Below are positions 2,946 to 43,103 of a stretch of 47,223 bases of DNA, in pieces. Position numbers and translations under genes: made by a program. The first letter of the stretch is position 1, and each line of letters starts with the position of its first letter. Under the pieces are notes generated by a model, which did not search any database, had not been told where the DNA came from, and worked only from the letters and a program-made list of their open reading frames with translations. This DNA comes from Thermoplasmata archaeon (lineage in GTDB: Archaea; Thermoplasmatota; Thermoplasmata; Lutacidiplasmatales; UBA184), in assembly GCA_049799275.1 (NCBI GenBank), contig JBARHO010000247.1, forward strand, positions 1 to 47,223, in the 5' to 3' direction.

Positions 2946-2959
2946 CGTTCTCCTCCTCC

Positions 2960-3934
2960 TTAGTTCAGCACCGGGACCATGAACCGCATGATGGCCCAGC
3001 CGACCACGAGCATGATCGTCGCGTGCTGCATCCCGTCCGAGATGCGGCCGTTGAGCAGGACGCCCGCCATGATGCCGTCCCCGACCGCGTGGACGATGAC
3101 GGCCACCAGGAAGGCGATGAACAGGACGGGGACGTAGTTGAACGATAGATTGACGGCCGTGGAGCCGAGGGAGCTCGCCGAGATCCCCTCGCCGGCGAGG
3201 ACCATCTGCGGCAGGAAGACCGCCGCCATGATGTAGATCGTGACGAGGAACACGAAGAACGAGATGTAGATGACCGTCACGTAGGTGAGCATCGAGATCT
3301 GGCGCTCCTGCAGGGAGAGCTGGACCTCGCGGGTGTCGTGCGCCACCATCGAGAGCACATCGGCGACATTGCCCCCGGCCTCGTTGGCGCGGGTCACGAT
3401 CGAGACGACGCGCTGGACCAACGGGGTCGGAACGCGCTCCTCGAACAGGCGAAGGGCCGTCATCACCGGGACCCCCCACTCGAGCTGGCTCGCCATCCGC
3501 TTGATCTCCTCGGTCAGGAGCCCATAGCGGCCCCGGCTGGCGACGATGATCGCATCCGGCAGGGTCATCCCGAACCGGCCCGCCTCGGCAACGTCCCGGA
3601 GGAAGTCCGGCAGGCGGTCCTCGATCTTCTTGACCCGTCGGGTCTCCGCGCTCGCGATGAAGCCGTACGGGGCGAGGATGGCGATCAGCCCGAAGACCAT
3701 GAAGTCGAGAGCCGGATTGATCCCGGCGCCCTCTCCCGCGCGTACCTCGATGTTCATGACGCCTACGGCGTTCAGGAACCCGACGACCCAGAGCACGGCG
3801 GCGACGGCGGTGCCGGCGACCAGGAGGATCTGGTCCTTCGTGAGCAGCGCGCGATGGTCGACCTTCGCCATCGCCCCGGCGAAGGCCTTCGATCGAACGA
3901 TCTTCGCGGTCGCGTTCGAGTCAGCGGTCGCCAT
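2960..3934 (-). CDS. Half-size type IV filament platform protein (single T2SSF domain, TadC / FlaJ C-half-like)
   Basis: 324 aa. N-terminal TM hairpin, cytosolic helical block RLPDFLRDVAEAGRFGMTLPDAIIVA...ANEAGGNVADVL, then C-terminal TMs. The ATG at 3934 directly abuts the TAG of the upstream gene. Confidence 0.8.
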   Translation of the reverse strand: MATADSNATAKIVRSKAFAGAMAKVDHRALLTKDQILLVAGTAVAAVLWVVGFLNAVGVMNIEVRAGEGAGINPALDFMVFGLIAILAPYGFIASAETRRVKKIEDRLPDFLRDVAEAGRFGMTLPDAIIVASRGRYGLLTEEIKRMASQLEWGVPVMTALRLFEERVPTPLVQRVVSIVTRANEAGGNVADVLSMVAHDTREVQLSLQERQISMLTYVTVIYISFFVFLVTIYIMAAVFLPQMVLAGEGISASSLGSTAVNLSFNYVPVLFIAFLVAVIVHAVGDGIMAGVLLNGRISDGMQHATIMLVVGWAIMRFMVPVLN

Positions 3935-4909
3935 CTAGGCCTCCTGCGTGAGAACGTACATGAAGAAAATGAACCCGAACTGGGAGACCGGGATCATGCA
4001 GAGGATGATCCCCCAGAGGACGTCGATCATGAACTGGCCGCCCCCGCCGATGATCGCGAAGATCGCGATGATGATGACCAGGAAGAGGGGGAACGCCACG
4101 ACGACCGTGACGAACGTCTCGGCGAGGAGACCCATCGTCTCGACCCGGCGGAGCGCGTCGAGCTTGCTCTCGCGCTGGAACTGCTCGGCCTTGAGCAGGA
4201 AGTACGGTTTGAGCTGTCCACCGGACGTCGCCGTCGTGACGACCCCCTGGAGGAAGTCCTGGAAGCGCTTGGACGGGCTGCGCGCCGCCCCGTTACGGAC
4301 CGCGGTGAGGATGTCGACCCCGAGCAGCTCGGTGTCGCGGGTGATCCACGCGGCCTCCTCGGCGACCTCTCCGTAGATCTTCTGCCGGGCGAGCTCCTTG
4401 AAGATCGCGTCGACGTTGACATCGGCGCTCGCCATCGCACTGACGAAGCTCATCGCCGCGCTGATCTTCATGTCGATCTTCTTCCCGCGGCTCCGGGCGG
4501 CGGAGGCGGGGGCCCCCTTGAGGACCGCGAACGTGCCCAGCGTTCCGAAGACCGGGAGGCCGATCGCGAGCAGAAGTCCGATCAGGAAGTCATTGAGGAG
4601 GAAGATGAAGAATATCCCGAGCCCGAGGCCGATCACGGTCGTGGCGATCCCGGTCACCACCGTGGACGCGTAGACCGTCGCGAGGTACTCGTCGCCCCGG
4701 ATGCGCATGTGGGCCTTGAAGAGGTTCTCCTCCAGGATGGGGTCGGGGGGCTTGGCCGTCACGCGCGCGCGGAACGTGCGCCAGGCCCACTGCTGGAAGC
4801 CCGTGATGGGCGAGTGGGTCGGCTGGGCGCCCTTCTTGACGCGGATGGTGGGGAAGACCGTCTCGGTCCGGGTCGGGACCGCGGCCGCCGGGGCGTCGGC
4901 CGAGCTCAT
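3935..4909 (-). CDS. Half-size type IV filament platform protein (single T2SSF domain, TadB / FlaJ N-half-like)
   Basis: ATG at 4909 overlaps the ATPase stop (ATGA). 324 aa. TM hairpin, cytosolic block ISAAMSFVSAMASADVNVDAIFKELA...FLQGVVTTATSGGQL, then C-terminal TMs. The upstream part of the 660-aa track ORF overlaps the ATPase gene. Confidence 0.8.
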   Translation of the reverse strand: MSSADAPAAAVPTRTETVFPTIRVKKGAQPTHSPITGFQQWAWRTFRARVTAKPPDPILEENLFKAHMRIRGDEYLATVYASTVVTGIATTVIGLGLGIFFIFLLNDFLIGLLLAIGLPVFGTLGTFAVLKGAPASAARSRGKKIDMKISAAMSFVSAMASADVNVDAIFKELARQKIYGEVAEEAAWITRDTELLGVDILTAVRNGAARSPSKRFQDFLQGVVTTATSGGQLKPYFLLKAEQFQRESKLDALRRVETMGLLAETFVTVVVAFPLFLVIIIAIFAIIGGGGQFMIDVLWGIILCMIPVSQFGFIFFMYVLTQEA

Positions 4910-6540
4910 GCGGGAGCCTCCGGGGTGACCCCGATCCGCGCGAGGACCTCCTTGGGGTCCCGGTAGTAGGAGCTCACGAGGCTCCAAAGCTGGCGATAGT
5001 CGTTGATCTTGTGCGCGACGAGATACCGGATGACCGCGACGCGGCGCTGGAACTCCTGGTCCATCTCGTCGGTCGTGTAGTTCTTGAGATCCATGATCTT
5101 GTCGAACAGGAACGAGTGTCCCTTGAACACGAACTTGTCGCCGGACGGCTCCCATTCGTAGACGGTGTTCGTGATGAGCTCGTTCGTTTCGGGCTCGAAC
5201 CCCACGATCTCGAGGACCTGCTTCAGGCGCCGAACGACGCCCTTCTCGGTCCGGGCCTGGATCTGGATGATGACGTTGTTGAGCGCCGAGAGGAGGATCC
5301 TCGGGGTGTTGATCGGAGGGTTCTCGAGACGGTTGACCATCGACTTCACGCTGTCCGCGTGCATCGTCGAGTAGGTCGTGTGGCCCGTGGCCATCGCCTG
5401 GAACATCGTGTACGTCTCTTTGCCCCGGACCTCTCCCACGATGATGTAGTTCGGCCGCTGGCGAAGGGCCGCGCGCACCAGGTCGAACATGTCGACCTCG
5501 CCGGCCGCCTTCCCGTCGGGCCCGCGGTCGCCGGTCCCGCTGCGGGTCGCCCCCGGGATCCAGTTCTCGTGCGGAAGGTTGACCTCGCGCGTGTCCTCGA
5601 TCGAGACGATCTTCGAGGTGGGTGGGATGAACAGGGCGATGGCGTTGAGCGTGCTCGTCTTGCCCGCGGCGGGGCCGCCGCAGATGATGAGCGATTCCCC
5701 CTGCTCGGCCGCGAGCCAGAAGTAGGCGATCATCTCCTCGTTGGCGCTTCCCGTGAGGACGAGGTCGACCGGGGTGAACGGGCGTTCCTTGAACCGCCGG
5801 ATGGTGAAGCTGCCGCCCCGGGTCGTGATCTCCTTCGAGTAGGTGGCCTGGACCCGGTGACCTTCGGGTGTCGTCCCGTCCAGGATCGGGTTCGAGACGG
5901 AGACCGCCTTGCCGCACCGTTGCCCGAGCTGGACGACGAAGGAGTTGAGGGTGTCCTCGTCCGGGAAGACCACCGAGGTCTTCATGGACTCGAACTTGGA
6001 GTGGAAGACGAAGAGGGGGACGTCGACCCCATCGCAGGAGATGTCCTCGACCTGGATGTCCTGGATCAGGGTGTCGATGGGACCGTACCCGACGAAGTCG
6101 CGCTGGATGTAGTAGACGACGCGTTCGGTCGAGAGCGGGCTCAAGGTGATCTGCCGGGTCTTGAGATAGTTCTCGACCTCTCCCCGAAGGTACGTCCGCT
6201 TCTCGGTCATCGAGAGCGTCGCGACCTCGGAACCCATGATCTTCGTGAGCGTGGTCTTGAGGTGGAGGATGAGCTCGCGTTCGTGGCGCGTGAGCTGCGG
6301 TTCGATGACCTCGTAGAGGTACTCCTTGGTCCGGTCGTTGTAGCTGATCCGGGCGTAACAGTAGGGAGGGTTGATCGCCGTGACCTCGAGCTCCTTCATG
6401 TCGGGGTCGCCGAGGGGCGGCATCGCGGTGATGAACGTCCCGGGGACGTCGGTACGACGCTCCCCGGTCGCGGTGGCCGGAACGACGTCGTCGGAAGAGG
6501 AATTGCGCGGGATCCGAACTCGGAACTGTGAACTACTCAT
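4906..6540 (-). CDS. Type IV filament / archaellum-type secretion ATPase (FlaI/TadA/PilB family), copy A
   Basis: 544 aa. Motifs: Walker A GGPAAGKTSTLNA, VSIEDTREVNL, Walker B YIIVGEVRG, STMHADS. The N-domain is paralogous to copy B (EYLYEVIEP in both). AGGAGA lies upstream of the ATG. Confidence 0.9.
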   Translation of the reverse strand: MSSSQFRVRIPRNSSSDDVVPATATGERRTDVPGTFITAMPPLGDPDMKELEVTAINPPYCYARISYNDRTKEYLYEVIEPQLTRHERELILHLKTTLTKIMGSEVATLSMTEKRTYLRGEVENYLKTRQITLSPLSTERVVYYIQRDFVGYGPIDTLIQDIQVEDISCDGVDVPLFVFHSKFESMKTSVVFPDEDTLNSFVVQLGQRCGKAVSVSNPILDGTTPEGHRVQATYSKEITTRGGSFTIRRFKERPFTPVDLVLTGSANEEMIAYFWLAAEQGESLIICGGPAAGKTSTLNAIALFIPPTSKIVSIEDTREVNLPHENWIPGATRSGTGDRGPDGKAAGEVDMFDLVRAALRQRPNYIIVGEVRGKETYTMFQAMATGHTTYSTMHADSVKSMVNRLENPPINTPRILLSALNNVIIQIQARTEKGVVRRLKQVLEIVGFEPETNELITNTVYEWEPSGDKFVFKGHSFLFDKIMDLKNYTTDEMDQEFQRRVAVIRYLVAHKINDYRQLWSLVSSYYRDPKEVLARIGVTPEAPA

Positions 6541-15004: not shown

Positions 15005-15748
15005 TCAGCCGACCCGGGTCCCGTGGAACGCGAGCCCGCGCAGGGCCGCTTCGAGGTTGTCGAGGTCGCGCCCGTTCACGATCCGCAGCGGGATCCCGGC
15101 GCGCGCGAGGAGGTCGGCCCCGAGCCGGTCGAAGACGTACTCCTGGCCCGCCTCTTGCACTCCCGTGGCCTGCTGGACCATGTGCCGGAACTTGGACCAG
15201 GTCAGTCGGGGGAGCAAGCGGGCGCCCGGGACCTTCCGGGGATCGGCGTCGTAGACCCCATCGACCCGGGTGGCGTTGACCAATCGGCTCGCCCGGAGCC
15301 GGGCCGCCAGGAGCGCCGCGACCCCATCGGTCGTGTGGCCCGGTTCGGTGCCTCCCAGGACCACCAGCGAACCCCGGTGGGCCTCATGGACGGCGGCCGC
15401 GATGGAGGTCGGTGGATGGGCGGGGGCCGGTGGCCCGATACGGGCCGCGAGGATCCGGGCATGGAGCCGCGTCACCTCGATCCCGATCTCGTCGAGCTCC
15501 ACCTCGGTCAGTCCGAGCGCTCGCCCCAATCGGATGTACTCGCGCGCCGTTCGACCACCGCCCGTCGTGACGACGAGCGGGAACTCGCGTTCCAGCGTGC
15601 GCAGGAGCTGGGAGAGCTTGTCGATGTACACGGCGTCCCCGTCCCCGGTCGCGAGCACCGAGCCGCCGACCGACAGCACGACCGGGGCCCTCCGCGGACG
15701 GCGAGAACGGATCGGGGCCATCGGGCGCCGGACGAGGGGAGGGGACAT
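15005..15748 (-). CDS. pyrH: UMP kinase, archaeal type
   Basis: VLSVGGSVL, VVTTGGGRTAREYI, LGGTEPGHTTDGVAALLA. The start is uncertain (15748 or the ATG at 15721). Confidence 0.85.
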   Translation of the reverse strand: MSPPLVRRPMAPIRSRRPRRAPVVLSVGGSVLATGDGDAVYIDKLSQLLRTLEREFPLVVTTGGGRTAREYIRLGRALGLTEVELDEIGIEVTRLHARILAARIGPPAPAHPPTSIAAAVHEAHRGSLVVLGGTEPGHTTDGVAALLAARLRASRLVNATRVDGVYDADPRKVPGARLLPRLTWSKFRHMVQQATGVQEAGQEYVFDRLGADLLARAGIPLRIVNGRDLDNLEAALRGLAFHGTRVG

Positions 15749-18349: not shown

Positions 18350-18901
18350 ATGTCGGGCTCGGTCGTTCCCGGTGCGGGCGGGGTACCGGCGCGGCTCGGG
18401 CATCTCTCCTTCGAGGTCGCGGACCTTGCGCGGACGACGTGGTTCTACGACCGTTTCCTGCGCCGGTTGGGGTTCGAGCGGTTCGTGGCCGAGGCCTCGT
18501 ACGCCGGGTACCGGACGAGCGATCTGACCATCTGGTTCCTTCACGAGACCCCCGAGCGGGTCCGTCGAAGGGCCATCACCGGGGAGGAGAACGTCGTGGC
18601 CGAGCACCTCGCGTTCTTCGTGCGCTCGGCCGGCGAGGTCGAACGGGTCCAGGCGGACCTCGAGAAGGTCGAGGTCTATCCGACCTTCCGGGCGGCCGAG
18701 CATCCCGAGTTCCACGCGGGATACTTCTCGGCGACCTGGATCGACCCCGACCAGATCGCGCTCGAGGTCTATACGATCCCGGAAGGGACCGCTCGCTCCC
18801 GGCCCTCGGCCCGTACCTCGACCCAGAAGGTCCGACCGAAGCTCAGGGCGCGACCCCGTTCGCCGCCGAAGAAGAAAAAGAAGGTCCCGCGCGCCCGGTG
18901 A
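18350..18901 (+). CDS. VOC/glyoxalase-family protein with a basic Lys/Arg-rich C-terminal tail
   Basis: LGHLSFEVADLARTTWFYDRFL...EHLAFFV. The tail RPKLRARPRSPPKKKKKVPRAR overlaps the 3' end of the convergent MVD gene. Confidence 0.6.
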   Translation: MSGSVVPGAGGVPARLGHLSFEVADLARTTWFYDRFLRRLGFERFVAEASYAGYRTSDLTIWFLHETPERVRRRAITGEENVVAEHLAFFVRSAGEVERVQADLEKVEVYPTFRAAEHPEFHAGYFSATWIDPDQIALEVYTIPEGTARSRPSARTSTQKVRPKLRARPRSPPKKKKKVPRAR

Positions 18902-19901
18902 TCAGGTGCCCTCCGGGCCCCGGGCGAAGGGTCCGGAGCTCGGCGACCCCGGGCACACGGCCCAGGATGCGGTGGACCCGAGCATGGTCCGGTTCCAACG
19001 TGAACACATGGACGTGGGCGCCGGCGTCGTGGGTGTACGCCGCGACGTAGTGGCCCGCCTCCTCGTTGATCTCCCGCACGGCCGTGAGGACGCGTCGCGA
19101 CGTGTCGGTCAGGTAATCGAACGCGGGACGTGTCGTTTCGCAGATCTCACGGAACTCATCGCATTCCTCCATGATCAGCGGAAAGAGCCGCTCGGGATCC
19201 TTCCGGCGAAGGGCGCGCCGCAGTTCGGCCAGCCGGCGCGGGACCGCTTCGATGCGCGCGGCATATCCCGGGGCCGTTCGGATGCTGAACTGCATGGCCC
19301 GGGCGGAGCGTCGTTTCTTCGGGACCGCATCGGCCACGAGGACCGCGACGTCCCGGAACTCGGGCCAATGGGACTCGGGCAGCACGGCCCGGGCGTAGCA
19401 ATCGCCCCCGTCCTCGCGCGTCCCGGCCCGCCATTCGACGAACCCACCAAAGAGCGAGCGACACGCGCTCCCGGACCCGAACCGGGCCAGCTGCGACAGT
19501 CGCTGCGGGGAGAGCCTGAGACCGGCCGCGTACGCGCCGGCCCCGGCCAGTGCGGCGAACCCGCTGGCGCTGCTCGCCATCCCGCTCGCCGTCGGGATAT
19601 TGTTCGACGAGGTGACGCGCGCGTGATCCGATCGCCCCGCTTCGGTCCGGATCCGGTCGAGCAGGGCCGAGACCGCCTTCCGGGGCGAGCCGTGATCCAC
19701 GACCCCGTTCATGACGAGCTCGTCCTCCCTCACCTTGGGATCGAAGACGACCCGGGTGCGGCTGCGGACGCGGTCGAGGGTCACCGAGAGCGACGGATTG
19801 TACGGAAGGACCAGGGCCTCGTCCCGGAGCCCCCAGTACTTGATCAGGGCGATGTTCGCGGGTGCCTCGTACGTGGCTTCGTTCATCGTCCTCGAGGTCA
19901 T
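18843..19901 (-). CDS. Mevalonate (di/bis)phosphate decarboxylase family, GHMP kinase fold
   Basis: APANIALIKYWGLRD, NNIPTASGMASSASGFAAL, GSGSACRSLFGGFVEW. Substrate (MVAPP, MVAP or 3,5-bisphosphate) cannot be assigned from sequence. Confidence 0.85.
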   Translation of the reverse strand: MTSRTMNEATYEAPANIALIKYWGLRDEALVLPYNPSLSVTLDRVRSRTRVVFDPKVREDELVMNGVVDHGSPRKAVSALLDRIRTEAGRSDHARVTSSNNIPTASGMASSASGFAALAGAGAYAAGLRLSPQRLSQLARFGSGSACRSLFGGFVEWRAGTREDGGDCYARAVLPESHWPEFRDVAVLVADAVPKKRRSARAMQFSIRTAPGYAARIEAVPRRLAELRRALRRKDPERLFPLIMEECDEFREICETTRPAFDYLTDTSRRVLTAVREINEEAGHYVAAYTHDAGAHVHVFTLEPDHARVHRILGRVPGVAELRTLRPGPGGHLITGRAGPSFSSSAANGVAP

Positions 19902-28422: not shown

Positions 28423-29184
28423 ATGCTGATTCGGTTCCGTTTGCCCGGCACCCGCCCCCGATCCCGCCGAGCGGTCAGTCCGGTCATCGCGACCGTGCTC
28501 TTGGTCGCGATCACGATGGTCCTCGTGGCGGTGCTCTATGGGTACATCCAACCGAACTACCCTTCCCAGCAGCCCCAGTTGAACTTCGTCGCGGAAGGGG
28601 ACCAGAGCCAGCAGACGTGGGGGGATCCCACGGACTGCTCGAACACCACGAACGACGCGCAATGCAACAGCATCCCGGCCATCTTCGTGGTCTTCACGTC
28701 CTTCACGCCGGCGGTCATCCCGCTCCAGGACCTGCAGCTCTACCTGTACTGCAACGGAACGAGCCTCATCAACGGGACCTTCGCGTCGCTCGAGCTCATC
28801 CCCGGGACCGGTCAGAACCCCCCGTCGGGCTCGCCGACGCTCGGCGCCTGCGGAGGATGGTCCCCCAACCCGGTCGGTACCCACGCCACCTGGTTCAACC
28901 GGCTCCTCTACTTCCAGCAGGTGCAGACGAACCGCACCGTGCTCGCGGTCGGGGACATGTTCGTCGTCTACGCGCACCCTCCGCTGGGGTTCAAGGACTG
29001 GGGATGCACGCACGGGCTCTACCCCCCCGACTCGACCGAGTGCAGCGGGGAGGATGACGACTTCCACGGCGCTCCTCCCTGGTGCTACCAGGAGCCCGGT
29101 CTGTGCTCGGTCGTCTTCTACGACACGGCCGGCTCCGGCGCGGTCGTGGGCCAGGTACCGCTCTACGGCCTCGCTCCGCCCTAG
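28423..29184 (+). CDS. Archaeal type IV pilin-like protein (DUF1628-type N-terminus), Cys-rich ectodomain
   Basis: ATG at 28423. RSRRAVSPVIATVLLVAITMVLVAVLYGYI is the classic class III signal peptide plus hydrophobic helix. The ectodomain has 8 Cys and several N-x-S/T sequons. Confidence 0.75.
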   Translation: MLIRFRLPGTRPRSRRAVSPVIATVLLVAITMVLVAVLYGYIQPNYPSQQPQLNFVAEGDQSQQTWGDPTDCSNTTNDAQCNSIPAIFVVFTSFTPAVIPLQDLQLYLYCNGTSLINGTFASLELIPGTGQNPPSGSPTLGACGGWSPNPVGTHATWFNRLLYFQQVQTNRTVLAVGDMFVVYAHPPLGFKDWGCTHGLYPPDSTECSGEDDDFHGAPPWCYQEPGLCSVVFYDTAGSGAVVGQVPLYGLAPP

Positions 29185-29290: not shown

Positions 29291-31234
29291 CTAGGTCCCG
29301 CTCACGAGGTGGAACGTACCGGCCAGCAGTAGGATGGTCAACCCTCCGAGAACGGTCAGCCGGAGGATCGCGGCGAAGGCGATCCGAAGGCGGTCGGGCG
29401 CGACGTCGGAGGTACCATCGTCGGTGGGGCGATCGGCCCGGACCACGTGCCCGGAGCTCGCACCGTCAGTTCCCCGCAACGCAAGCGGGAGACCGGCGAG
29501 AAGGAACCCTACGATGAACCCGATGACGGCGAGGGCACCGAACCCGAGGCCCAGCACGAGCACCCCGACCGTGAGGAGGGCCAGCGGTACGAGGGTCCGC
29601 GTGGACCGCCAGGCGATCGCCTCCCCCTGCCCGGAGGAGCGAGCGATCTCGACCTTCCGAACGTCCGTAAAGAGGATCCAATCGAGAACGATGGCCCCGA
29701 GCGCCCCGATCATCAGGCCGAAGAACACGAACGGATCGTTCACCGCCAACTGGGTCGCCAGAGAGACGACGGTGATGCTCTCCGCATTCGCGAGGACCAC
29801 CACATAGGACGCCAGGAGACCCAACGCGGTGATCGCGGCGATCACCGGGGCGAGCCCGGCCGCGGCCGTCCGGGCCGCGACGGCGGAACGATGGAAGAAA
29901 TCCCCGAGCTCGGACGAGATGGTCGAACTGGTGGCGGCCCCGGCGACCGCGGCGGTGGACCCACAGGTCATGGCGACCCCGCCGAGCATCAGGGCCGGGC
30001 CGGCGAAACCGACCATCGCGGCCCCCGCGATGACCAATCCGAACAGGTTGAAGTCGAGGCCGACCCCGGCGAGATCCGTGGGTCCGCCTCCCCAACCGAC
30101 CGCGGCATACGCGCCGACCGAACCCAGCGTCACTGCGCCGAAGGCGAGCGCGGCCGACGCGCGTCCCGACCACCGGGCCGCGGTGGCGACCTCGGGCACC
30201 CGCTCCCCCGTCGGGCCCAGGTCACCGGAGGACCCCTCAGAACGGGACGACCAGGGGAGCAGGAACGCTGCCATCGCCACGAACCCGGCCGCCGTCCCCG
30301 AGAGCCCGGCCAAGAAGACCCCGAAGTTGGAGCTCATCACGAGAATGACCAGCATGGCCTGACCCAGGACCGTCACGAAGACCGCGACGAGCAATCCGAG
30401 ATAGAGCGCCCCCGGCGTCGGCCCCGGTCTCGAGTTCGAGGCGATCGCCGTCCCCACGATCGCGGCGACGACGCCCCACGCGCCGATCAAGAGCGGAAAG
30501 AGGATGCCGTTCGAGAAGAGATCGCGAGGTACCGAGTCCCGGTACGCGAAGAGCGCCGCCGCACCCGCGCCGACCAACAGGGACGCGAGGAGGTCGCTCG
30601 AGAGCAGAGCTCCCTCAGAGAGCGCCGCCGAGAACGATCCTACCGGGTCCCGCGTCGGTCGAGCGGAGGGGACGGGACCGGTCGGACGGAGGCTGCGCAG
30701 GGTGAGCGCGCTCAGGCTGATCAGCGAGGCGCCGACGGCCACCCCGACCAGATCGGCCACGTTCCCGTTCGAGGCGAGATAGACCGCCAAGAGCATCCCG
30801 AACACGCCGGCCAGGATCGCGCATCCGAACGCCGAGGCCGCGACGACCGGCTCGGAACGGGCGCGTATGGGACGCTCCCCCTCGAGATCGTGCGTGAGGC
30901 TAAGGAACGTACCGACGCAGGCCACGACGGCCAGCAGCATCAGGAGGAACGCGCCGACCGCGCCGACCAGGAGGCTGAGGGCGATCCCGGAAGAAAGGTG
31001 CGACGGAACGGAAACGATGAGGATCGCCAGGACGGCGGCGAGGCCAAGTCCCGGTCCGTACTCCTTTCCGATGGATCGGGCCCCGGCCCGACGCAAGGCC
31101 TGGCCCTGCTTACGGACCTGCTCGGTCGGGCGATGACGCCCCCGAAGGAAGACGAACTGCATCGCGGAGTACGCGATCGCGGCGGCCGTCAGCAGCATGA
31201 TCGCCGCTTCGACATCGAGCTGCGACCACGTCAT
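29291..31234 (-). CDS. Polytopic membrane protein, divergent membrane-integral pyrophosphatase (H+/Na+-PPase) homolog lacking most catalytic motifs
   Basis: 647 aa, about 14-16 TM helices. Collinear blocks against the recalled M-PPase sequence are GKEY near the N-terminus, AFGCAILA...VY....ADLVG, SSDLLASLLVGA and SAVAARTAAAG. The DNVGDNVGD and [10 protein letters not shown] positions are replaced. Confidence 0.55.
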   Translation of the reverse strand: MTWSQLDVEAAIMLLTAAAIAYSAMQFVFLRGRHRPTEQVRKQGQALRRAGARSIGKEYGPGLGLAAVLAILIVSVPSHLSSGIALSLLVGAVGAFLLMLLAVVACVGTFLSLTHDLEGERPIRARSEPVVAASAFGCAILAGVFGMLLAVYLASNGNVADLVGVAVGASLISLSALTLRSLRPTGPVPSARPTRDPVGSFSAALSEGALLSSDLLASLLVGAGAAALFAYRDSVPRDLFSNGILFPLLIGAWGVVAAIVGTAIASNSRPGPTPGALYLGLLVAVFVTVLGQAMLVILVMSSNFGVFLAGLSGTAAGFVAMAAFLLPWSSRSEGSSGDLGPTGERVPEVATAARWSGRASAALAFGAVTLGSVGAYAAVGWGGGPTDLAGVGLDFNLFGLVIAGAAMVGFAGPALMLGGVAMTCGSTAAVAGAATSSTISSELGDFFHRSAVAARTAAAGLAPVIAAITALGLLASYVVVLANAESITVVSLATQLAVNDPFVFFGLMIGALGAIVLDWILFTDVRKVEIARSSGQGEAIAWRSTRTLVPLALLTVGVLVLGLGFGALAVIGFIVGFLLAGLPLALRGTDGASSGHVVRADRPTDDGTSDVAPDRLRIAFAAILRLTVLGGLTILLLAGTFHLVSGT

Positions 31235-31370
31235 CGATCATGTGGCGTTCGGTCGCGTTGGCTCCGACCGGAACGGTCGAGGAATTTACCTCTGGACCGG
31301 CATTTATAACCTTGGACCGATCATAAAACCGCGCGTGGGGCGATGCGGTCGCTGCGGACGCTCGCGCGCG

Positions 31371-32687
31371 ATGGGGCGGGGGGCGCTGCTCACGATCTCC
31401 GTGATCGTGCTCCTGGGCTCTGCTCTGGATCTGGGGGCCGTTCGCACGGAGGCCCGAGGGATCGGCCCGGACCCGGGGTCGCGATCCTTCTCGACGGGGG
31501 CGGACGCGACCGCACCCGGGGCGTACATTCCTGGTTGGTCGAACATCACCGGGCCGGGGGACGTCCAAGTGCTTCCCGGGTCCCGACAGGGCGCGGCGTG
31601 GGCCTACGATCCGGCTCTGGGCCGTGTGGTCCTGTACGGCGGAACGGGGCCGGGGAACGTCGTCCTGAACGACACCTGGACCCTCGTGCCTCGGAACATC
31701 ACGTGGGTGCCGGCCGACCCGGCCGAGGTGAGCGCGGACCCCTCCCACCTTCCGGAGCCCTTGCCGCCATTGACCAATGCTTCGATGGCCTACGATGCGG
31801 TCGACGGATACCTGCTCCTCTTTGGCGGAGAGCTCCCGAACGGGAGCGCGTACAACGGCACCTGGTCCCTCTCGGGATCGGTGTCGGCCGGCCTTGAGTG
31901 GACGGATCTCACGCCCACGCTCGCGAGCGGACCCGGACCTTGTGCGTCTCCCAAGATGGTCTACGACAACGAGTCCGGTTCGATCTTCCTCTATACGGGG
32001 GAGGCCCGCAACAGCACCTGGCAGTATCATGACGGCAGTTGGGGACGGCTTCCCAGCGTGTCGATCCCCCCGCCGAGGCGAGGAGGAGCGCTCGCGTACC
32101 TGCCGGGCGACGAGGGGGTCCTCCTGTTCGGGGGGGAGTCGATCGCTACCGTCTTCCGACCGTCGGTGGCCCTCAACGATACCTGGCTCTATGAGGACGG
32201 CGGGTGGTCGACCCGCCCGCTCAACGGCTCTCCCCCGGCCCTTCCCTACGTAGGGATGGATTACGACGGCGTCCTGGACAAGGTCTTCGTGGTCGCGGGC
32301 GGACCGACCCTGCAGACCTGGACGCTCTCCCCCGAGAGCTGGACGTCGGACTGGACGAACGTGACGGCGGCCGGACCGACGACACCCTCGGGTCGGACCG
32401 GCTACGGGGTGCTCTACGACCCGGTCGATGGCTGGACGATGCTCTTCGGGGGCCAGACGTGGGGCTCGTCCTCCGCGGAGCTCAATGACCTCTGGGTCTG
32501 GGACCATCCGGCCTCTTCCCAGGACCCGGCCACGGCGGCGGCCCCCATCCCGTGGATCCTCTGGGTCGGTGCGGCCCTGGGCGGCTCGGTCGCGATCGCC
32601 CTCGCGGTCGTATGGGTCCGGTGGCCCCGCCAGCGAAGTTCCGCCCCGGTCCCGAACGGTCCCCCTTCCGCGCCGGCCGAACGATGA
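31371..32687 (+). CDS. Secreted Kelch-repeat beta-propeller protein with C-terminal TM anchor
   Basis: Signal peptide MGRGALLTISVIVLLGSA. Six blades marked by LYGG/LFGG...NDTW repeats. C-terminal WILWVGAALGGSVAIALAVVWV plus a basic stop-transfer sequence. Many sequons. Confidence 0.75.
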   Translation: MGRGALLTISVIVLLGSALDLGAVRTEARGIGPDPGSRSFSTGADATAPGAYIPGWSNITGPGDVQVLPGSRQGAAWAYDPALGRVVLYGGTGPGNVVLNDTWTLVPRNITWVPADPAEVSADPSHLPEPLPPLTNASMAYDAVDGYLLLFGGELPNGSAYNGTWSLSGSVSAGLEWTDLTPTLASGPGPCASPKMVYDNESGSIFLYTGEARNSTWQYHDGSWGRLPSVSIPPPRRGGALAYLPGDEGVLLFGGESIATVFRPSVALNDTWLYEDGGWSTRPLNGSPPALPYVGMDYDGVLDKVFVVAGGPTLQTWTLSPESWTSDWTNVTAAGPTTPSGRTGYGVLYDPVDGWTMLFGGQTWGSSSAELNDLWVWDHPASSQDPATAAAPIPWILWVGAALGGSVAIALAVVWVRWPRQRSSAPVPNGPPSAPAER

Positions 32688-35089: not shown

Positions 35090-37267
35090 TTAGGCCGTCA
35101 GCTTCAGAACGCCGAGGTTGAGGTTCGACCCCGAGACCGTCACGAGCTTGGTCAAGTAGGTGTACCCGGGAGCGACCACGGTGAACCCGTAGGTCTCCCC
35201 TCCGGGAACATAGAACGTGGCCACTCCGTGGCTCCCGATCGAGGTCGATTCGGTCTCCCCCGCCACGATGAAGTTCACCGTGCCGGAGGTCACGGGGGAC
35301 CCCGAGGAGGATTCGATCGTGACCGTGACCGAACGGAGCACGGCCGTCGCGAAGTAGGGCAGGATCTCCAGCCAGCCATTGTCCACGGTCCCGGTCATGA
35401 CCTCCCAGATCAGGCCGGACCGTTGCATCGTCCAGACGTACTCTCCGTTCGGCAGCCACTCCAAGAGGTACCCATTGGGGTTCGAGACCATCTGGGTCAC
35501 GCCGGTCTGGTTGAAGGTAGATACCGTGGCGCCCGCGAGCGACGTACCGTTCGAATAGTCCGTTCGGCCGGTGACACGGAAATTGGTCGTGGGCGAGAGG
35601 GTCGCGAGCTTGAACGTCGCGACCGACTCGGCCGCCCCGGAGACGACGAGCGCGATCAGGGCCGGTTCATACCCCTTCGCGTTCGCCTGAAGGAAATAGG
35701 TCCCGTTCGGGATCTGGGCGGTGAACTGGCCCTTCGAGCTGGTGGAGCTCGTCATGAGGGAACCGTTCTGGATCCAGTCTATCATCGCCTTTCCGATCGG
35801 CACGGAGGATGAGGTCTCGACGGTCCCCGTGATCGCATACTTCGTGAAGTAGATGGGGTTCGGGGCGAGGACCAGATCGAAGTTCGAGATCGACGCTCCA
35901 TTGACGGTGAGGGTCTGTTCGTCCGGGAAGTATCCCGCAGCGGTGCCGGTCACGTTGTAGGTCCCGTTCGCCGGGGAGAGCGTGAACGTCCCTGCGGATC
36001 TGGAGGTGGTCCACGTGTAGACGGGGTCCGTGATGTTCGCGCCGGCCAGCACGGTGCCGGACGAGGAGGTGACCGTCCCGGTCACGGAATAGATAGGGTC
36101 GAAGGTGAAGAGGTCGGTCATCGGGGGCGATCGCGTCCACGAATCATTGTGGCCGGTGCGTCCCAGGTCGAGCAGCCATTCCGTGGTCGTGAGCAGGCTC
36201 ACGGTGTCGTAGGGGATCACGGAGGCGAGACCATGGCGGGCGTACGGGCTGACCGCGATCGTGAGGATCTGCCCCCCCCCGGTCCCGTACGGGAGGTTCC
36301 CGTAGCCCTCATCGAACGTGATGAAGAAGACCGTGTTCGAGAAGATCGAGGAGTCGTTGACGAGCGGGGAAAGGAAGGACTTCAGCCAGTCGTTGGCCGC
36401 CGTCAGGTTCCCCGGACCCGGGGCTCCGTGCCCGTCGTCGATCTGGTTGGGGCTGATCCAGGAGTAGGCGGGGAGAGCGCTGGCGTTCACGTCGGCACTG
36501 AAGTTCGTGAGCGGGAGCACCTTGGCCTTGCAGACCGACGGGTTCGACGCGATGTCCTGGTAATGGATGAACGGGTCGTGGCCGGGGTTGTACAGCGTGG
36601 TATTGGTGACATCGCACGGGTAGGGGATGGATTGCATGAAGCTCCCCCAGGAAAGGCCCGCGGTGTCCAGGAGGTCGCCGATGTTCGTCTCGGTCTGGTT
36701 GAAGGCCAAGCTCGTGACCCCGGACGTGGCCGCGATGTAGTCATTGAGCGAATTGTGGTGGACCGCGAAGAAATTGTCCGAGTAGGCGTAGGTGTGCGCG
36801 AGATAGCTGAAGAAGGGCTGGGCTAGCGCAGCGGCGATCGCAGCGTTCTCGTCCATGATGACGACGACGTGTCGGATCGGGGTGGGGAACGATCCGCTCG
36901 AGGATCTGGATAGGGACATCGTCGTCGTCGAACTGGCGCCGTTGATCGTGACATTGGTATAGGTAGCCGAAAATCCGGCGGCCGTGGCCCGGAGCTCGTA
37001 GGTACCGTCCGCGAAATTACCGGAGGTGTACCCGGCAGCGGTGGTGGGATCCCCGATCTGGACCCAGGTCGATCCGGAGCGGTACGAGACGATGGCCCCG
37101 GAGACCGGAGAGCCGCTGGACAGGACCCGGATCGTTAGCTTGTAGGTGGTCGATGCGGAAGTAAGGGGTGCGGACAGCAGCAGAGCTGCGAGGACCGCGA
37201 TCGATATCGCGAGGGCTCTTTGGAGCGTCCTGCTCCTTCTCCCGGATCTCCGGTAACCTTCGGTCAT
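35090..37267 (-). CDS. Secreted phosphoesterase (PLC/AcpA-type, PF04185-like) flanked by CarboxypepD_reg/Ig-like domains
   Basis: ATG at 37267 and a signal peptide. N-terminal Ig-like domain; IRHVVVIMDENAA, HHNSLNDY, YSWISPNQIDDGHG, ITFDEGYG; then about four repeats of the pattern GTV..S.G..L.GA.I. The C-terminal region is dense in sequons. Confidence 0.7.
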   Translation of the reverse strand: MTEGYRRSGRRSRTLQRALAISIAVLAALLLSAPLTSASTTYKLTIRVLSSGSPVSGAIVSYRSGSTWVQIGDPTTAAGYTSGNFADGTYELRATAAGFSATYTNVTINGASSTTTMSLSRSSSGSFPTPIRHVVVIMDENAAIAAALAQPFFSYLAHTYAYSDNFFAVHHNSLNDYIAATSGVTSLAFNQTETNIGDLLDTAGLSWGSFMQSIPYPCDVTNTTLYNPGHDPFIHYQDIASNPSVCKAKVLPLTNFSADVNASALPAYSWISPNQIDDGHGAPGPGNLTAANDWLKSFLSPLVNDSSIFSNTVFFITFDEGYGNLPYGTGGGQILTIAVSPYARHGLASVIPYDTVSLLTTTEWLLDLGRTGHNDSWTRSPPMTDLFTFDPIYSVTGTVTSSSGTVLAGANITDPVYTWTTSRSAGTFTLSPANGTYNVTGTAAGYFPDEQTLTVNGASISNFDLVLAPNPIYFTKYAITGTVETSSSVPIGKAMIDWIQNGSLMTSSTSSKGQFTAQIPNGTYFLQANAKGYEPALIALVVSGAAESVATFKLATLSPTTNFRVTGRTDYSNGTSLAGATVSTFNQTGVTQMVSNPNGYLLEWLPNGEYVWTMQRSGLIWEVMTGTVDNGWLEILPYFATAVLRSVTVTIESSSGSPVTSGTVNFIVAGETESTSIGSHGVATFYVPGGETYGFTVVAPGYTYLTKLVTVSGSNLNLGVLKLTA

Positions 37268-37456
37268 GGCTGGTCGCTCTACGGCGTCCCCCCGAGGGCG
37301 TCGACCGCCAGAGGCGGATATAGACTCGTCCCACCCAACTCGCCAGCTCTGGCTGGGCCGGGAGCGGAAGTGGGTCGTCGAGCTCTCCGTCGGCTGCCGG
37401 CTGGCTTCGCCGCAGCGCTGTGCGTGAACGGTGGGGAAACGCGAGCCTGGGGCCCG

Positions 37457-37530
37457 TGCGGGCACCGGGATTTGAACCCGGGTTATAGGCTTGGCAAGCC
37501 TATGTGATAACCAGACTACACTATGCCCGC
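37457..37530 (-). tRNA. tRNA-Gly (anticodon GCC)
   Basis: Reverse strand: acceptor GCGGGCA/TGCCCGC, D arm TAGTGTAGTCTGGTTATCAC, anticodon stem-loop TAGGC-TT-GCC-AA-GCCTA, T arm CCGGG-TTCAAAT-CCCGG. Confidence 0.9.
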
Positions 37531-41174: not shown

Positions 41175-43103
41175 CTAGGTGAGCTTCAATCGGCGTAGGA
41201 GCCTCGAAAATCGGGGATCGGACCTGAGACGATCGAACCGGGGCTCGACCTTGATCCAGGCCAGCCAGGCGGACCGCTCCTTGTCCGCTCGCTCCAGCCA
41301 TTCGAAGGCATGGTCCGCGTCGCCGAGACCGACGTACACCATGGCGATCCAGTACGAGGGCACGTACGCGGACCGCGCCCGGTCGCGCAGTACGCCCAGG
41401 ATCCGGTTCGCCTGGCGTCGCTGCCCGGCCGAAGCGTAGGCGTGCCCGAGTACCGCGAGGCTCATCGTGCTCTTGTGGGACAGTCGGACCGCCGCACGGA
41501 CCTCCGTGATCGCCTCCGTGAACATTCCCTTCTCCAGGAACGGTCGACCGAACCACAGTCGGGCCTGAGCGAAGTTGGGATCCAAGCGGAGCGCCTTCCG
41601 ATACTGCTCGATCGCCGCGTCGTACTGTCGGCTGAGGTAGAGGACATGTCCGAGGGCCGTGTTGATCGCCAAGGACAACGGGTCGAGCTCGAGGGCCCGG
41701 CGCACCTCCAATTGGGCCTCGTCGAGACGTCCGACGGCCTTCAGCAGATCCGAATAGAACTGGTGGGCGACGGGATAGTTCGGATTGAGCGAGATGGCGC
41801 GACGGAACTCCCGTTCCGCCTCCAACCAGGACCGGTCGTAGAGGAACTGCACGAATCCCAGCGAGGTGTGCGCTTCCGCGAGAGAGGGATCGAGCTCGAT
41901 CGCCCTCAGCGCGGCCTTCTTGGCCTGAGGAAAGGCCTCTCGGGGGCGGAGGAACTCGAGCCAGGCGAGGAGGCTGTATGCGTCCGCCAGGCCCGCCTGG
42001 GCCTCGGCGAGATGAGGATCCAATCTAAGTGCGGTCCGGAAGCTCTCCAACGAGCTGAACAGTGGCTCCCGGCTGCGCTGGTTGAGAAGATAGCGCCCCT
42101 TCAGGTACGCCGAGTGGGCGGCAGAGTCCGAGGTGATGGGCCGACGCAACACGTTCTGCTCGCGACCCACCATCTCGACCCTCAGTGCGCTCGCCACGCG
42201 CTCGGCGATCTCCGTTTGGACCCGGAACACGTCGCCGATCTCCCGGTCGTAGGTCTCGGACCAGAGGGACTCCTCGCTGCGGCCATCCAAGAGCCGGACC
42301 GTCACCCGGAGGCGATTCCCCGCGGTCCGGATCGATCCTTCGACGATCGCGTTGGCCCCGAGCTCTCGCGCGATCTCCGAGGGTGGGCGCGTGCTACCTT
42401 TGAACCGCATGGTGGAGCTTCGGCCGATCGTCCGGAGGCCCACGATCCCGGACATCGTCTGGATCAGTTCCTCGGTGATCCCGTCCGCGAAGTACTCGTC
42501 CTCGGTCCGGCCGCCGATGTTGAGGAGAGGCAGAACGCCGACACGGGGCTGGCCCTGGCTGGGGGCGGAAGGGGTCGCCGGTCGAGCGGAAGGAAGATCG
42601 ATCCGGAACACCGCGATCGGCAAGCGAATGTTCTTGAGCTCGGGGGTGCCGATCGACTCGAATCGGGCACCGACCTTGTTCCGAACCTGATCATAGACCT
42701 GCTGCGTCACGCACACGCCCCCCGGCTCCGCGATCGGTTCGATCCGGGCGACGATGTTCACCGCGTCGCCGAACACGTCCTTTCCCCGTCGAACGATATC
42801 TCCCAGGTGAACCCCGATCCGGAGCTCGATGCGCTCCGCGGCGGAGGGGGGGAACGCGCGTGAGACCGCCCTCTGAACGCGGATCGCGCAGTTCACGGCC
42901 GATAGGGCGCTCGGGAACTCCACGAGGAACCCGTCGCCGAGGCTCTTGACCACGCGACCTCGAAAGCTACGAAAGACCGGACGGACGCACCGCTCTTGGG
43001 CCCGAAGGAGCTGGAGCGCCCGTCGCTCGTCCCGCTGGGTCAGGGACGAGTACCCGACGATGTCGGTGAGCAGCATCGCGGCGAGCTGGCGCGTGGGGGG
43101 CAC
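41175..43103 (-). CDS. Class III adenylate/guanylate cyclase fused to a TolB-N-like linker domain and TPR repeats
   Basis: AAMLLTDIVGYSSL, KSLGDGFLVEF, RIGVHLGDIV, DVFGDAVNIVARIE. The C-terminal half is made of repeated TPR units (A..Y..AL.LDP). Confidence 0.85.
   Translation of the reverse strand: MPPTRQLAAMLLTDIVGYSSLTQRDERRALQLLRAQERCVRPVFRSFRGRVVKSLGDGFLVEFPSALSAVNCAIRVQRAVSRAFPPSAAERIELRIGVHLGDIVRRGKDVFGDAVNIVARIEPIAEPGGVCVTQQVYDQVRNKVGARFESIGTPELKNIRLPIAVFRIDLPSARPATPSAPSQGQPRVGVLPLLNIGGRTEDEYFADGITEELIQTMSGIVGLRTIGRSSTMRFKGSTRPPSEIARELGANAIVEGSIRTAGNRLRVTVRLLDGRSEESLWSETYDREIGDVFRVQTEIAERVASALRVEMVGREQNVLRRPITSDSAAHSAYLKGRYLLNQRSREPLFSSLESFRTALRLDPHLAEAQAGLADAYSLLAWLEFLRPREAFPQAKKAALRAIELDPSLAEAHTSLGFVQFLYDRSWLEAEREFRRAISLNPNYPVAHQFYSDLLKAVGRLDEAQLEVRRALELDPLSLAINTALGHVLYLSRQYDAAIEQYRKALRLDPNFAQARLWFGRPFLEKGMFTEAITEVRAAVRLSHKSTMSLAVLGHAYASAGQRRQANRILGVLRDRARSAYVPSYWIAMVYVGLGDADHAFEWLERADKERSAWLAWIKVEPRFDRLRSDPRFSRLLRRLKLT

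Follow-up and report, generated by a model that had tools for sequence, protein, structure and literature searches.

Membrane pyrophosphatases (M-PPases) are among the simplest primary ion pumps and have no homologs among other pumps (PMC9408878). Their active site has "completely conserved" Asp, Asn and Lys residues: a cage of five Mg2+ around pyrophosphate (PPi) is formed by the Asp and Asn residues, the Lys residues bind PPi directly, and D6.43 and D16.39 hold the nucleophilic water (PMC10897367). The ion site comprises E6.53/57, D6.50, S6.54 and D/N16.46 and is gated by K16.50 (PMC10897367), and K+ dependence is set by the Ala/Lys site at position 12.46 (PMC10897367 Table 1). The gene considered here lies in a 47,223-nucleotide stretch of DNA from a Thermoplasmata archaeon (contig JBARHO010000247.1 of assembly GCA_049799275.1), which was analysed at its full length and is called the window. 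At positions 29291..31234, on the minus strand, it encodes a 647-residue divergent homolog of the M-PPases, hereafter the target. Judged from its sequence, the target is probably a non-catalytic M-PPase paralog, that is, a pseudoenzyme, whose source was probably the lineage of the K+-independent H+-PPases; that catalysis was lost while a selected function was retained appears likely. We know of no described non-catalytic branch of the M-PPases, and the family has no model of its own in Pfam or NCBIfam. The word "inactive" appears nowhere in a 2024 review of microbial PPases, a negative of little weight given how limited the evidence from the wider literature is.

The coding sequence starts with ATG and ends with TAG. 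The most prominent residues of its product are Ala (16.8%), Leu (14.8%), Gly (12.4%) and Val (10.4%), and it contains only three Lys residues. Hydropathy analysis reveals many hydrophobic segments, and in the model built with AlphaFold2 (AF2) DSSP resolves 16 long helices, which are the predicted transmembrane (TM) helices. The position of the open reading frame (ORF), its length of 647 residues and the Ala/Gly/Leu-rich, polytopic nature of the protein, as described in a first-pass annotation made from the letters of the DNA, agree with the ORF list, the composition and the hydropathy. The start codon is supported by the N-terminal pattern MTW..DVE, which recurs in P0016, an ortholog of 32% identity. 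Large antisense and overlapping ORFs run across the same stretch, as is ordinary for DNA of about 67% GC.

Relationship to membrane pyrophosphatases

Homology was established through Thermoplasmata intermediates and by profile-profile comparison, because sequence searches of the PDB, including a single-sequence phmmer search with the target, found nothing. Three NCBIfam models of Na+-PPases match the target (E = 5e-11 to 1e-4), all with scores far below the curated cutoffs; the best of them, NF001959 (E = 5e-11), reaches 41.7 bits where 975 are required. An exhaustive phmmer search of 1.84e9 representative proteins returned only six matches to the target, namely two fragments of the same protein; the protein P0004; and three canonical M-PPases, P0005 (E = 5e-17), P0006 (E = 1e-9) and P0007 (E = 1e-7), which match PF03030 (H_PPase) with E values down to 3.9e-242. 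P0004, which is 31% identical to the target (E = 1e-37) and belongs to the second of the two clusters that make up the divergent family, has no Pfam or NCBIfam match. P0005 is closely related to enzymes of known structure, the K+-independent H+-PPase of Pyrobaculum (PaPPase, 8B37; E = 2e-160) and the Na+-PPase of Thermotoga maritima (TmPPase, 4AV3; E = 1e-142). In single-sequence scoring both divergent clusters were closest to Thermoplasmata M-PPases, and the Tm and Pa enzymes were not significant. Word-indexed homolog searches with the target and with the family profile each found only P0001.

When the divergent family was aligned to the canonical enzymes with hhalign, the match reached 99.6% in local mode (E = 3.5e-24, 532 columns) and 99.9% in global mode (E = 4.9e-34, 584 columns). 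The single divergent clusters gave 99.1% and 98.1%, and a comparison with the solved Tm and Pa enzymes only gave 96% (E = 4.8e-9). Among the decoys, a reversed canonical profile attained 1.6%, and an unrelated polytopic Na+/H+ exchanger from the window 0.2%. The target scored 78 bits against P0005, and the best of 200 shuffled targets -7.8 bits. Together, the shuffled targets, the reversed profile and the unrelated transporter rule out an artefact of composition or of TM bias. On these sequence comparisons, the common ancestry of the target and the M-PPases, collinear over the full length, is solid, and the homology proposed in the first-pass annotation is borne out by the NCBIfam, phmmer and hhalign matches, set against the negative decoys.

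An AF2 model computed from a multiple sequence alignment (MSA) of divergent and canonical sequences had a predicted TM-score (pTM) of 0.78 and a mean confidence (pLDDT) of 71.8, with pLDDT below 50 at residues 184-194 and 589-613. Its top 36 fold matches in the PDB were all M-PPases, with TM-scores of 0.66-0.76, and the next match scored 0.13; the best were the T. maritima Na+-PPase (4AV3/5LZQ) and the H+-PPase of Vigna radiata (4A01). The control model, made from an MSA of divergent sequences only, had a pLDDT of 32 and a pTM of 0.23.

The K+-independent H+-PPases of Thermoplasmata, represented by the P0005 cluster, have a 16-TM architecture with which the target is collinear; its identity to P0005 is about 25-29% (29% over the stretch matched by phmmer). 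The target has in common with the P0005 cluster and PaPPase the motifs GNVxDxVGVxxGASLxSL, FxNxILFP and GNxGVF and the absence of a TM4-5 insertion, and it resembles them in its basic residue at 12.46, in D6.50, in an acid at 6.43 and in D16.39. Unlike them, it has no PF03030 match and lacks the Asp and Asn residues of the Mg5-PPi cage, the PPi-binding Lys residues, the gate Glu6.53 and N16.46; in addition, its K16.50 is Arg, its cytoplasmic loops 5-6, 13-14 and 15-16 are shorter, and its polarity of conservation is inverted. Identity to the Tm Na+-PPase and the V. radiata H+-PPase is about 16-17%, with no significance in single-sequence phmmer comparison, and the target departs from them at the same functional residues. 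The second-best full-length match of canonical type is a "sodium-translocating pyrophosphatase" of Clostridium frigidicarnis (WP_090039840.1; P0006/P0033), in which several active-site positions are also substituted (D5.61N, D5.65N, D6.43E, D11.50N, D11.57N, D15.61N, D16.31G and D16.35K). Unlike the target, this protein matches PF03030 (E = 4e-140) and keeps K5.58, D6.35/6.39, E6.53, K12.50, K15.64, K16.38 and K16.50; judging from these substitutions, it may represent an M-PPase that has partly degenerated on its own, in another, bacterial lineage.

Catalytic and ion-gate positions

For the comparison of individual positions, the sequences of TmPPase and PaPPase were rebuilt from HMMER alignments, and their native numbering was verified (K199, D202, D206, D243, E246, K707 and others). 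A MAFFT L-INS-i alignment and a global hhalign alignment gave the same result at every membrane-embedded functional position. Their disagreement is confined to the rebuilt 5-6 loop, where both leave at most one Asp (D196). The assignment of PPi contact to the Lys residues at 5.58, 15.64 and 16.38 follows in part what is reported in Lin et al. 2012 and, for the general statement, PMC10897367.

In TM5 (aa 159-182, VADLVGVAVGASLISLSALTLRSL; 30689..30760, minus strand), S5.43 is kept as S170 and R5.50 has become L177. The rebuilt segment that follows, from the end of TM5 through loop 5-6 to the start of TM6 (aa 177-206; 30617..30706, minus strand), stands in both alignments where canonical enzymes have R-V-GGG-x-YTK-x-AD...DLVGK...EDDPRNP...DNVGDNVG. 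Its loop is about 15 residues shorter than the canonical one, and its net charge has changed from -5/-6 to +2. K5.58 is replaced by T185 and D6.39 by A203, and the cage positions 5.61, 5.65 and 6.35 correspond to a Val or a gap, to the ambiguous D196 and to a gap, respectively. The first-pass annotation had aligned the protein with M-PPases in four blocks, of which the first, third and fourth agree with MAFFT and hhalign; the second was one helix off. Residues 135-167 are TM4 and the 4-5 loop, with GNVxDxVGV as in the Thermoplasmata enzyme, and the query segment GNVADLVGVAVGASL pairs with the 4-5 loop and the start of TM5 (GNVLDMVGVLFGASL in P0005), not with the DLVGK motif at the end of that helix. 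The loss of the GGG-x-TKAAD motif claimed there holds despite the shift, the true counterpart of RVGGGxYTKxAD being LTLRSLRPTGPV (aa 177-188).

Further along TM6, position 6.43, an Asp in canonical enzymes, is occupied by Glu207 (30614..30616, minus strand), so that the acid is kept; it is invariant in both clusters. The gate segment D214-L-L-A217 (30584..30595, minus strand) retains D6.50 as the invariant D214, and E6.53, the semi-conserved gate Glu of M-PPases, is Ala217. S6.54 is kept as S218 in cluster 1 only, and 6.57 is V221. At the end of TM11 and the start of TM12 (aa 417-460; 29855..29986, minus strand; MAFFT and hhalign), D11.50 is replaced by G418, D11.57 by G425 (MAFFT), D12.39 by H448, N12.43 by V452 and K12.50 by A459, and the net charge goes from -3/-5 in canonical enzymes to 0. 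Position 12.46 is Arg455 (29870..29872, minus strand), which is invariant in both clusters; P0005, PaPPase and other K+-independent H+-PPases likewise have a basic residue there.

The shortened loop 15-16 (aa 588-613; 29396..29473, minus strand) is poorly conserved, with 9% identity between clusters. It lacks the segment with D15.61, K15.64 and K15.65, and P613 stands in place of K16.38. Asp is kept at 16.31 (D606) and 16.35 (D610) in cluster 1, not reliably in cluster 2: cluster 2 does not conserve D606, and even the members of cluster 1 vary at D610. Asp614 at 16.39 (29393..29395, minus strand) is invariant and is followed by an invariant R615. The TM16 gate segment A621...R625 (29360..29374, minus strand) has Ala in place of D/N16.46 (A621) and Arg in place of K16.50 (R625, invariant in both clusters), and the spacing of 11 residues between D614 and R625 equals that between D696 and K707 in TmPPase.

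Taken by function, the 11 Asp/Asn positions of the metal cage retain an acid only at 16.31, 16.35 and possibly 5.65, in cluster 1, and the Lys positions 5.58, 15.64, 16.38 and 12.50 are T185, deleted, P613 and A459. Both carboxylates of the nucleophilic-water site are present (E207, a conservative change from Asp to Glu, and D614), and D214 is the only residue of the ion gate kept throughout the family. Five axial charges, E207 (6.43), D214 (6.50), R455 (12.46), D614 (16.39) and R625 (16.50), are invariant in both clusters. The alignments indicate that the PPi-binding machinery is gone and that the ion site is down to D6.50, together with S6.54 in cluster 1. The stripping of acidic motifs described in the first-pass annotation is correct for the Asp, Asn and Lys residues that bind Mg2+ and PPi, which are substituted or deleted, and goes too far in taking all Asp residues as neutralised, given that E207 stands at the third Asp of DNVGDNVGD (D6.43) and that D214, D614, D606 and D610 are acids as well.

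These acids raise the question of residual catalysis, that is, of a target that still works as a pyrophosphatase, or as a phosphohydrolase-coupled pump, through a remodelled, minimal site built from E207, D606, D610, D614 and R455. Carboxylates at both nucleophile-water positions (E6.43 and D16.39), a basic 12.46 and a D-x3-D-x3-D spacing in TM16 (D606, D610, D614) kept in cluster 1 are in its favor, as is the name given to cluster 1 in JGI/IMG, "K(+)-stimulated pyrophosphate-energized sodium pump". Such an activity is nevertheless very improbable. All PPi-contacting Lys residues are lost, and at least eight Asp or Asn residues of the cage are substituted or deleted; the loop that holds D606 and D610 is disordered (pLDDT below 50), and neither residue is reliably kept; with 7-9% identity, the catalytic loops show less conservation than any other part of the divergent family. 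The JGI name was assigned although the PPi-binding residues are absent; it is probably a mis-annotation based on similarity, and the NCBIfam score of 41.7 bits is far below the cutoff of 975.

The distribution of conserved residues along the membrane axis has also changed. In pairs of canonical M-PPases the cytoplasmic half is 47-54% identical and the periplasmic half 32-35%. Between the target and P0005, in contrast, the periplasmic half is 31.6% and the cytoplasmic half 18.0% identical (Fisher p = 8e-5), and between the target and P0016 the values are 36.2% and 24.2% (p = 8e-4). As measured by these identities, the polarity of conservation is inverted, and the strongest constraint is now on the membrane core and the periplasmic half. 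TM11, TM12 and loops 5-6 and 15-16, the most conserved parts of true M-PPases, are among the least conserved in the divergent family, where TM5 and TM6 are still conserved best; relative to canonical Thermoplasmata M-PPases, TM7 (55% identity) and then TM5 (50%) are the best kept helices. The two clusters share two invariant motifs that canonical M-PPases lack. The cytoplasmic loop 3-4 carries D116-x-E118-x-E120...R-A-R126 (30857..30889, minus strand), and TM6 has Y231-R-D at its periplasmic end (30536-30544, minus strand); both may mark a new functional surface.

Family, selection and genomic context

The divergent family comprises 13 sequences among about 15 billion, which form two clusters and come only from metagenome-assembled genomes (MAGs) of Thermoplasmata. 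Cluster 1 has nine members, seven of them full-length (647 aa) and two fragments; the full-length ones are the NCBI protein of the window and six JGI sequences from different samples, 92-100% identical to the window protein. The four members of cluster 2, which include the "hypothetical protein, Thermoplasmata archaeon" MGA7922434.1 of NCBI, are collinear with the target at 32% identity and have lost the same residues. About 150 columns are invariant across both clusters. One scan of genome contigs and two of metagenome contigs yielded no relatives; the MAGs of the window and of P0016 are outside the GTDB representative set.

A decaying relic (a unitary pseudogene) or an assembly artefact might be suspected from the extreme rarity of the family (13 among about 15 billion) and from the fragmentary state of P0002, P0003, P0015 and P0017. 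Compared with two JGI orthologs, however, the window gene has 152 differences in its 1944 nucleotides and no indels. Of the codon changes, 94 are synonymous and 48 non-synonymous, which corresponds to a ratio of non-synonymous to synonymous substitution rates (dN/dS) of 0.19-0.20. The variable sites within cluster 1 amount to 21.5% of the loop positions and 9.1% of the helix positions. The length of 647 residues is identical in seven sequences from different samples, and a full-length syntenic ortholog exists at 32% identity. The fragments P0002, P0003, P0007, P0015 and P0017 stem from long-read ENA assemblies in which neighboring genes are likewise split. In three of these long contigs (L003, ERZ25039507; L004, ERZ25039509; L007, ERZ25039587), many genes are broken into two or three pieces, including those of the target, canonical hppA, a phosphoesterase and a Kelch protein. 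Long-read indel errors typically leave such a pattern, and the fragments are therefore attributed to indel noise of the long-read assemblies, not to pseudogenes. The substitution pattern indicates that the target gene is under purifying selection and is not decaying, and decay or artefact is hardly credible. The survey of orthologs and the dN/dS calculation suggested in the first-pass annotation have thus both favored its reading, with a second cluster at 32% identity that shares the losses. On the three points on which that reading could have failed, an M-PPase match was found, the acidic motifs are lost and the orthologs are conserved. The target combines homology, missing key residues and purifying selection, which together define a pseudoenzyme operationally, its inactivity itself being predicted. 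The proposal of a pseudoenzyme derived from an ion-pumping PPase is thereby supported by homology, residue loss, dN/dS and orthologs; the neofunctionalised channel or transporter that the first-pass annotation also considered is a hypothesis.

Both divergent clusters and their nearest canonical enzymes all come from Thermoplasmata MAGs. Because of its basic 12.46, its Thermoplasmata-only relatives and its best scores against Thermoplasmata M-PPases, we infer, from these features rather than from a tree, that the gene most likely arose by duplication among the K+-independent H+-PPases of Thermoplasmata. This group has a great many canonical M-PPases, with at least 8000 candidates, the best 120 of which are at least 83% identical to P0005. 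On related high-GC Thermoplasmata contigs (L007 and L008) a canonical hppA is present, and it is flanked by genes for threonyl-tRNA synthetase (ThrRS) and a metallophosphoesterase, which differ from the neighbors of the target.

The abundance of these enzymes, which are the closest relatives of the target, is one argument for a non-catalytic regulatory or structural partner, in which the target would form a heterodimer with a canonical Thermoplasmata M-PPase or modulate it and would not conduct ions. M-PPases act as dimers that show half-of-the-sites reactivity; the scaffold and periplasmic half of the target are conserved, the catalytic half not; D214 and R625 may just as well form a salt bridge with a structural role, in a scaffold that is closed. 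The subunits of M-PPases communicate across an interface formed by TM10, TM13 and TM15 (PMC5150537, PMC10897367). In the target these three helices are 29-38% identical to P0005, compared with about 26-27% over all TM helices. However, conservation with P0005 is highest in TM7 and TM5, not in the interface helices, the canonical hppA is known from related contigs only, and the target is monocistronic and does not lie beside hppA, whose locus has different neighbors. A partner role is, on balance, unlikely.

The monocistronic target gene has an archaeal type IV pilin-like gene as its convergent neighbor (window 28423-29184, plus strand) and a gene for a Kelch-repeat membrane protein as its divergent neighbor (window 31371-32687, plus strand). 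The same two genes flank the cluster 2 gene, at 54% (pilin-like) and about 38% (Kelch) identity, with the target inverted relative to its flanks; the counterparts are at L006:434-1153, L006:6224-6768 and L004:8233-9898. P0016, the full-length ortholog of 32% identity, occupies the syntenic position, and L003 is a syntenic contig of 658 kb. The conserved flanks could reflect either a functional link or merely a conserved gene order. The 136-bp divergent intergenic region that the target shares with the Kelch gene contains a candidate TATA-like, AT-rich element, GTTATAAAT (31302..31310, minus strand), about 70 nt upstream of the ATG; read from the letters, it is possibly an archaeal promoter. 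A scan of the window for sigma-70 promoters used a model that does not apply to archaea.

The first-pass annotation had placed the gene in a window rich in phosphate-handling genes. This functional context was rejected: the genes in question (adenylate and thymidylate kinases, Ppx/GppA, and enzymes of the pentose-phosphate and mevalonate pathways) are scattered housekeeping genes, none of which adjoins the target. A diphosphomevalonate-decarboxylase-like gene (window 18843-19901, minus strand) and a gene of the amino-acid-kinase family, probably an isopentenyl phosphate kinase (window 15005-15748, minus strand), fit a modified mevalonate pathway of the Thermoplasma type and support the Thermoplasmata origin of the contig. 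A PF04185 phosphoesterase fused to three CarboxypepD_reg domains is encoded at window 35090-37465 (minus strand); its longest ORF overlaps tRNA-Gly(GCC) (37456-37530, minus strand) by 10 nt, and the true start is probably further downstream.

Two other loci of the window may be mentioned. At 1173-6540 (minus strand), genes for two T2SSE/PilB-type ATPases (768 and 544 aa) overlap or adjoin that of a T2SSF-type membrane protein (660 aa), an arrangement that resembles a locus for the assembly of an archaeal type IV pilus or an archaellum-like structure, and the pilin-like neighbor of the target lies in the same window. At 41175-43103 (minus strand), a 642-aa protein carries an N-terminal class III adenylate/guanylate cyclase and C-terminal TPR repeats, an unusual signalling protein in an archaeon.

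Candidate functions and significance

The target would be unable to bind or hydrolyse Mg2PPi and hence would not be a primary pump. The column of acids and bases that survives would correspond to part of the path that connects the site of the nucleophilic water with the mid-membrane gate in M-PPases, with the water carboxylates at 6.43 and 16.39, the cationic-center position 12.46 and the mid-membrane gate residues 6.50 and 16.50 all retained. Because of this retention, a PPi-independent membrane module that binds or conducts H+, or is otherwise gated, is tentatively favored, and it might serve as an H+ conduit, a sensor or a secondary transporter. With E6.53/6.57 and D/N16.46 lost, the target is unlikely to coordinate Na+. 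The reuse of energy-coupled transporter scaffolds is known from CFTR within the ABC transporters and from CLC channels as opposed to CLC exchangers. The likeness of the target to these proteins is conceptual only and involves no homology, and any conductance or regulatory role of the target is hypothetical.

Several observations weigh against the reading of the target as an M-PPase-derived pseudoenzyme with a conducting core. Of the profile comparisons proposed in the first-pass annotation, the one between profiles succeeded (99.6% with hhalign), whereas the Pfam search of the target found no match to PF03030 at E<=10, and a hidden Markov model built from divergent sequences only did not reach the M-PPases in the PDB. 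The predicted structure suggested as a further check matches only M-PPases; since the model needs canonical sequences in its MSA, its fold match agrees with the homology and adds no independent support. With only 13 sequences in two clusters, few independent lineages underlie the statistics on conservation. With the ion-binding tetrad mostly gone, D6.50 and R16.50 could form a structural salt bridge that keeps the gate permanently closed, and E6.43, D16.39, D16.31 and D16.35 might conceivably make up a residual, very different site for metal or phosphate.

For now, the impact of the finding is limited by 13 sequences in two clusters, by uncultured hosts and by a function predicted from sequence. 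Carried into metabolic reconstructions, the label used in JGI would give these Thermoplasmata one PPi-driven pump too many. If the target is a non-catalytic paralog that now serves as a PPi-independent H+ conduit, sensor or secondary transporter, the family would represent the first branch of the M-PPases without catalysis, a natural "uncoupled" M-PPase in which the transport module is separated from the chemistry module. How PPi hydrolysis is coupled to ion movement is debated, the proposals being direct coupling, a billiard-type mechanism or pumping before hydrolysis. A relative that is under selection, has no hydrolytic center and keeps part of the charge column of funnel and gate would have the two modules already dissected, and it could show whether the channel half of these pumps works or folds alone.

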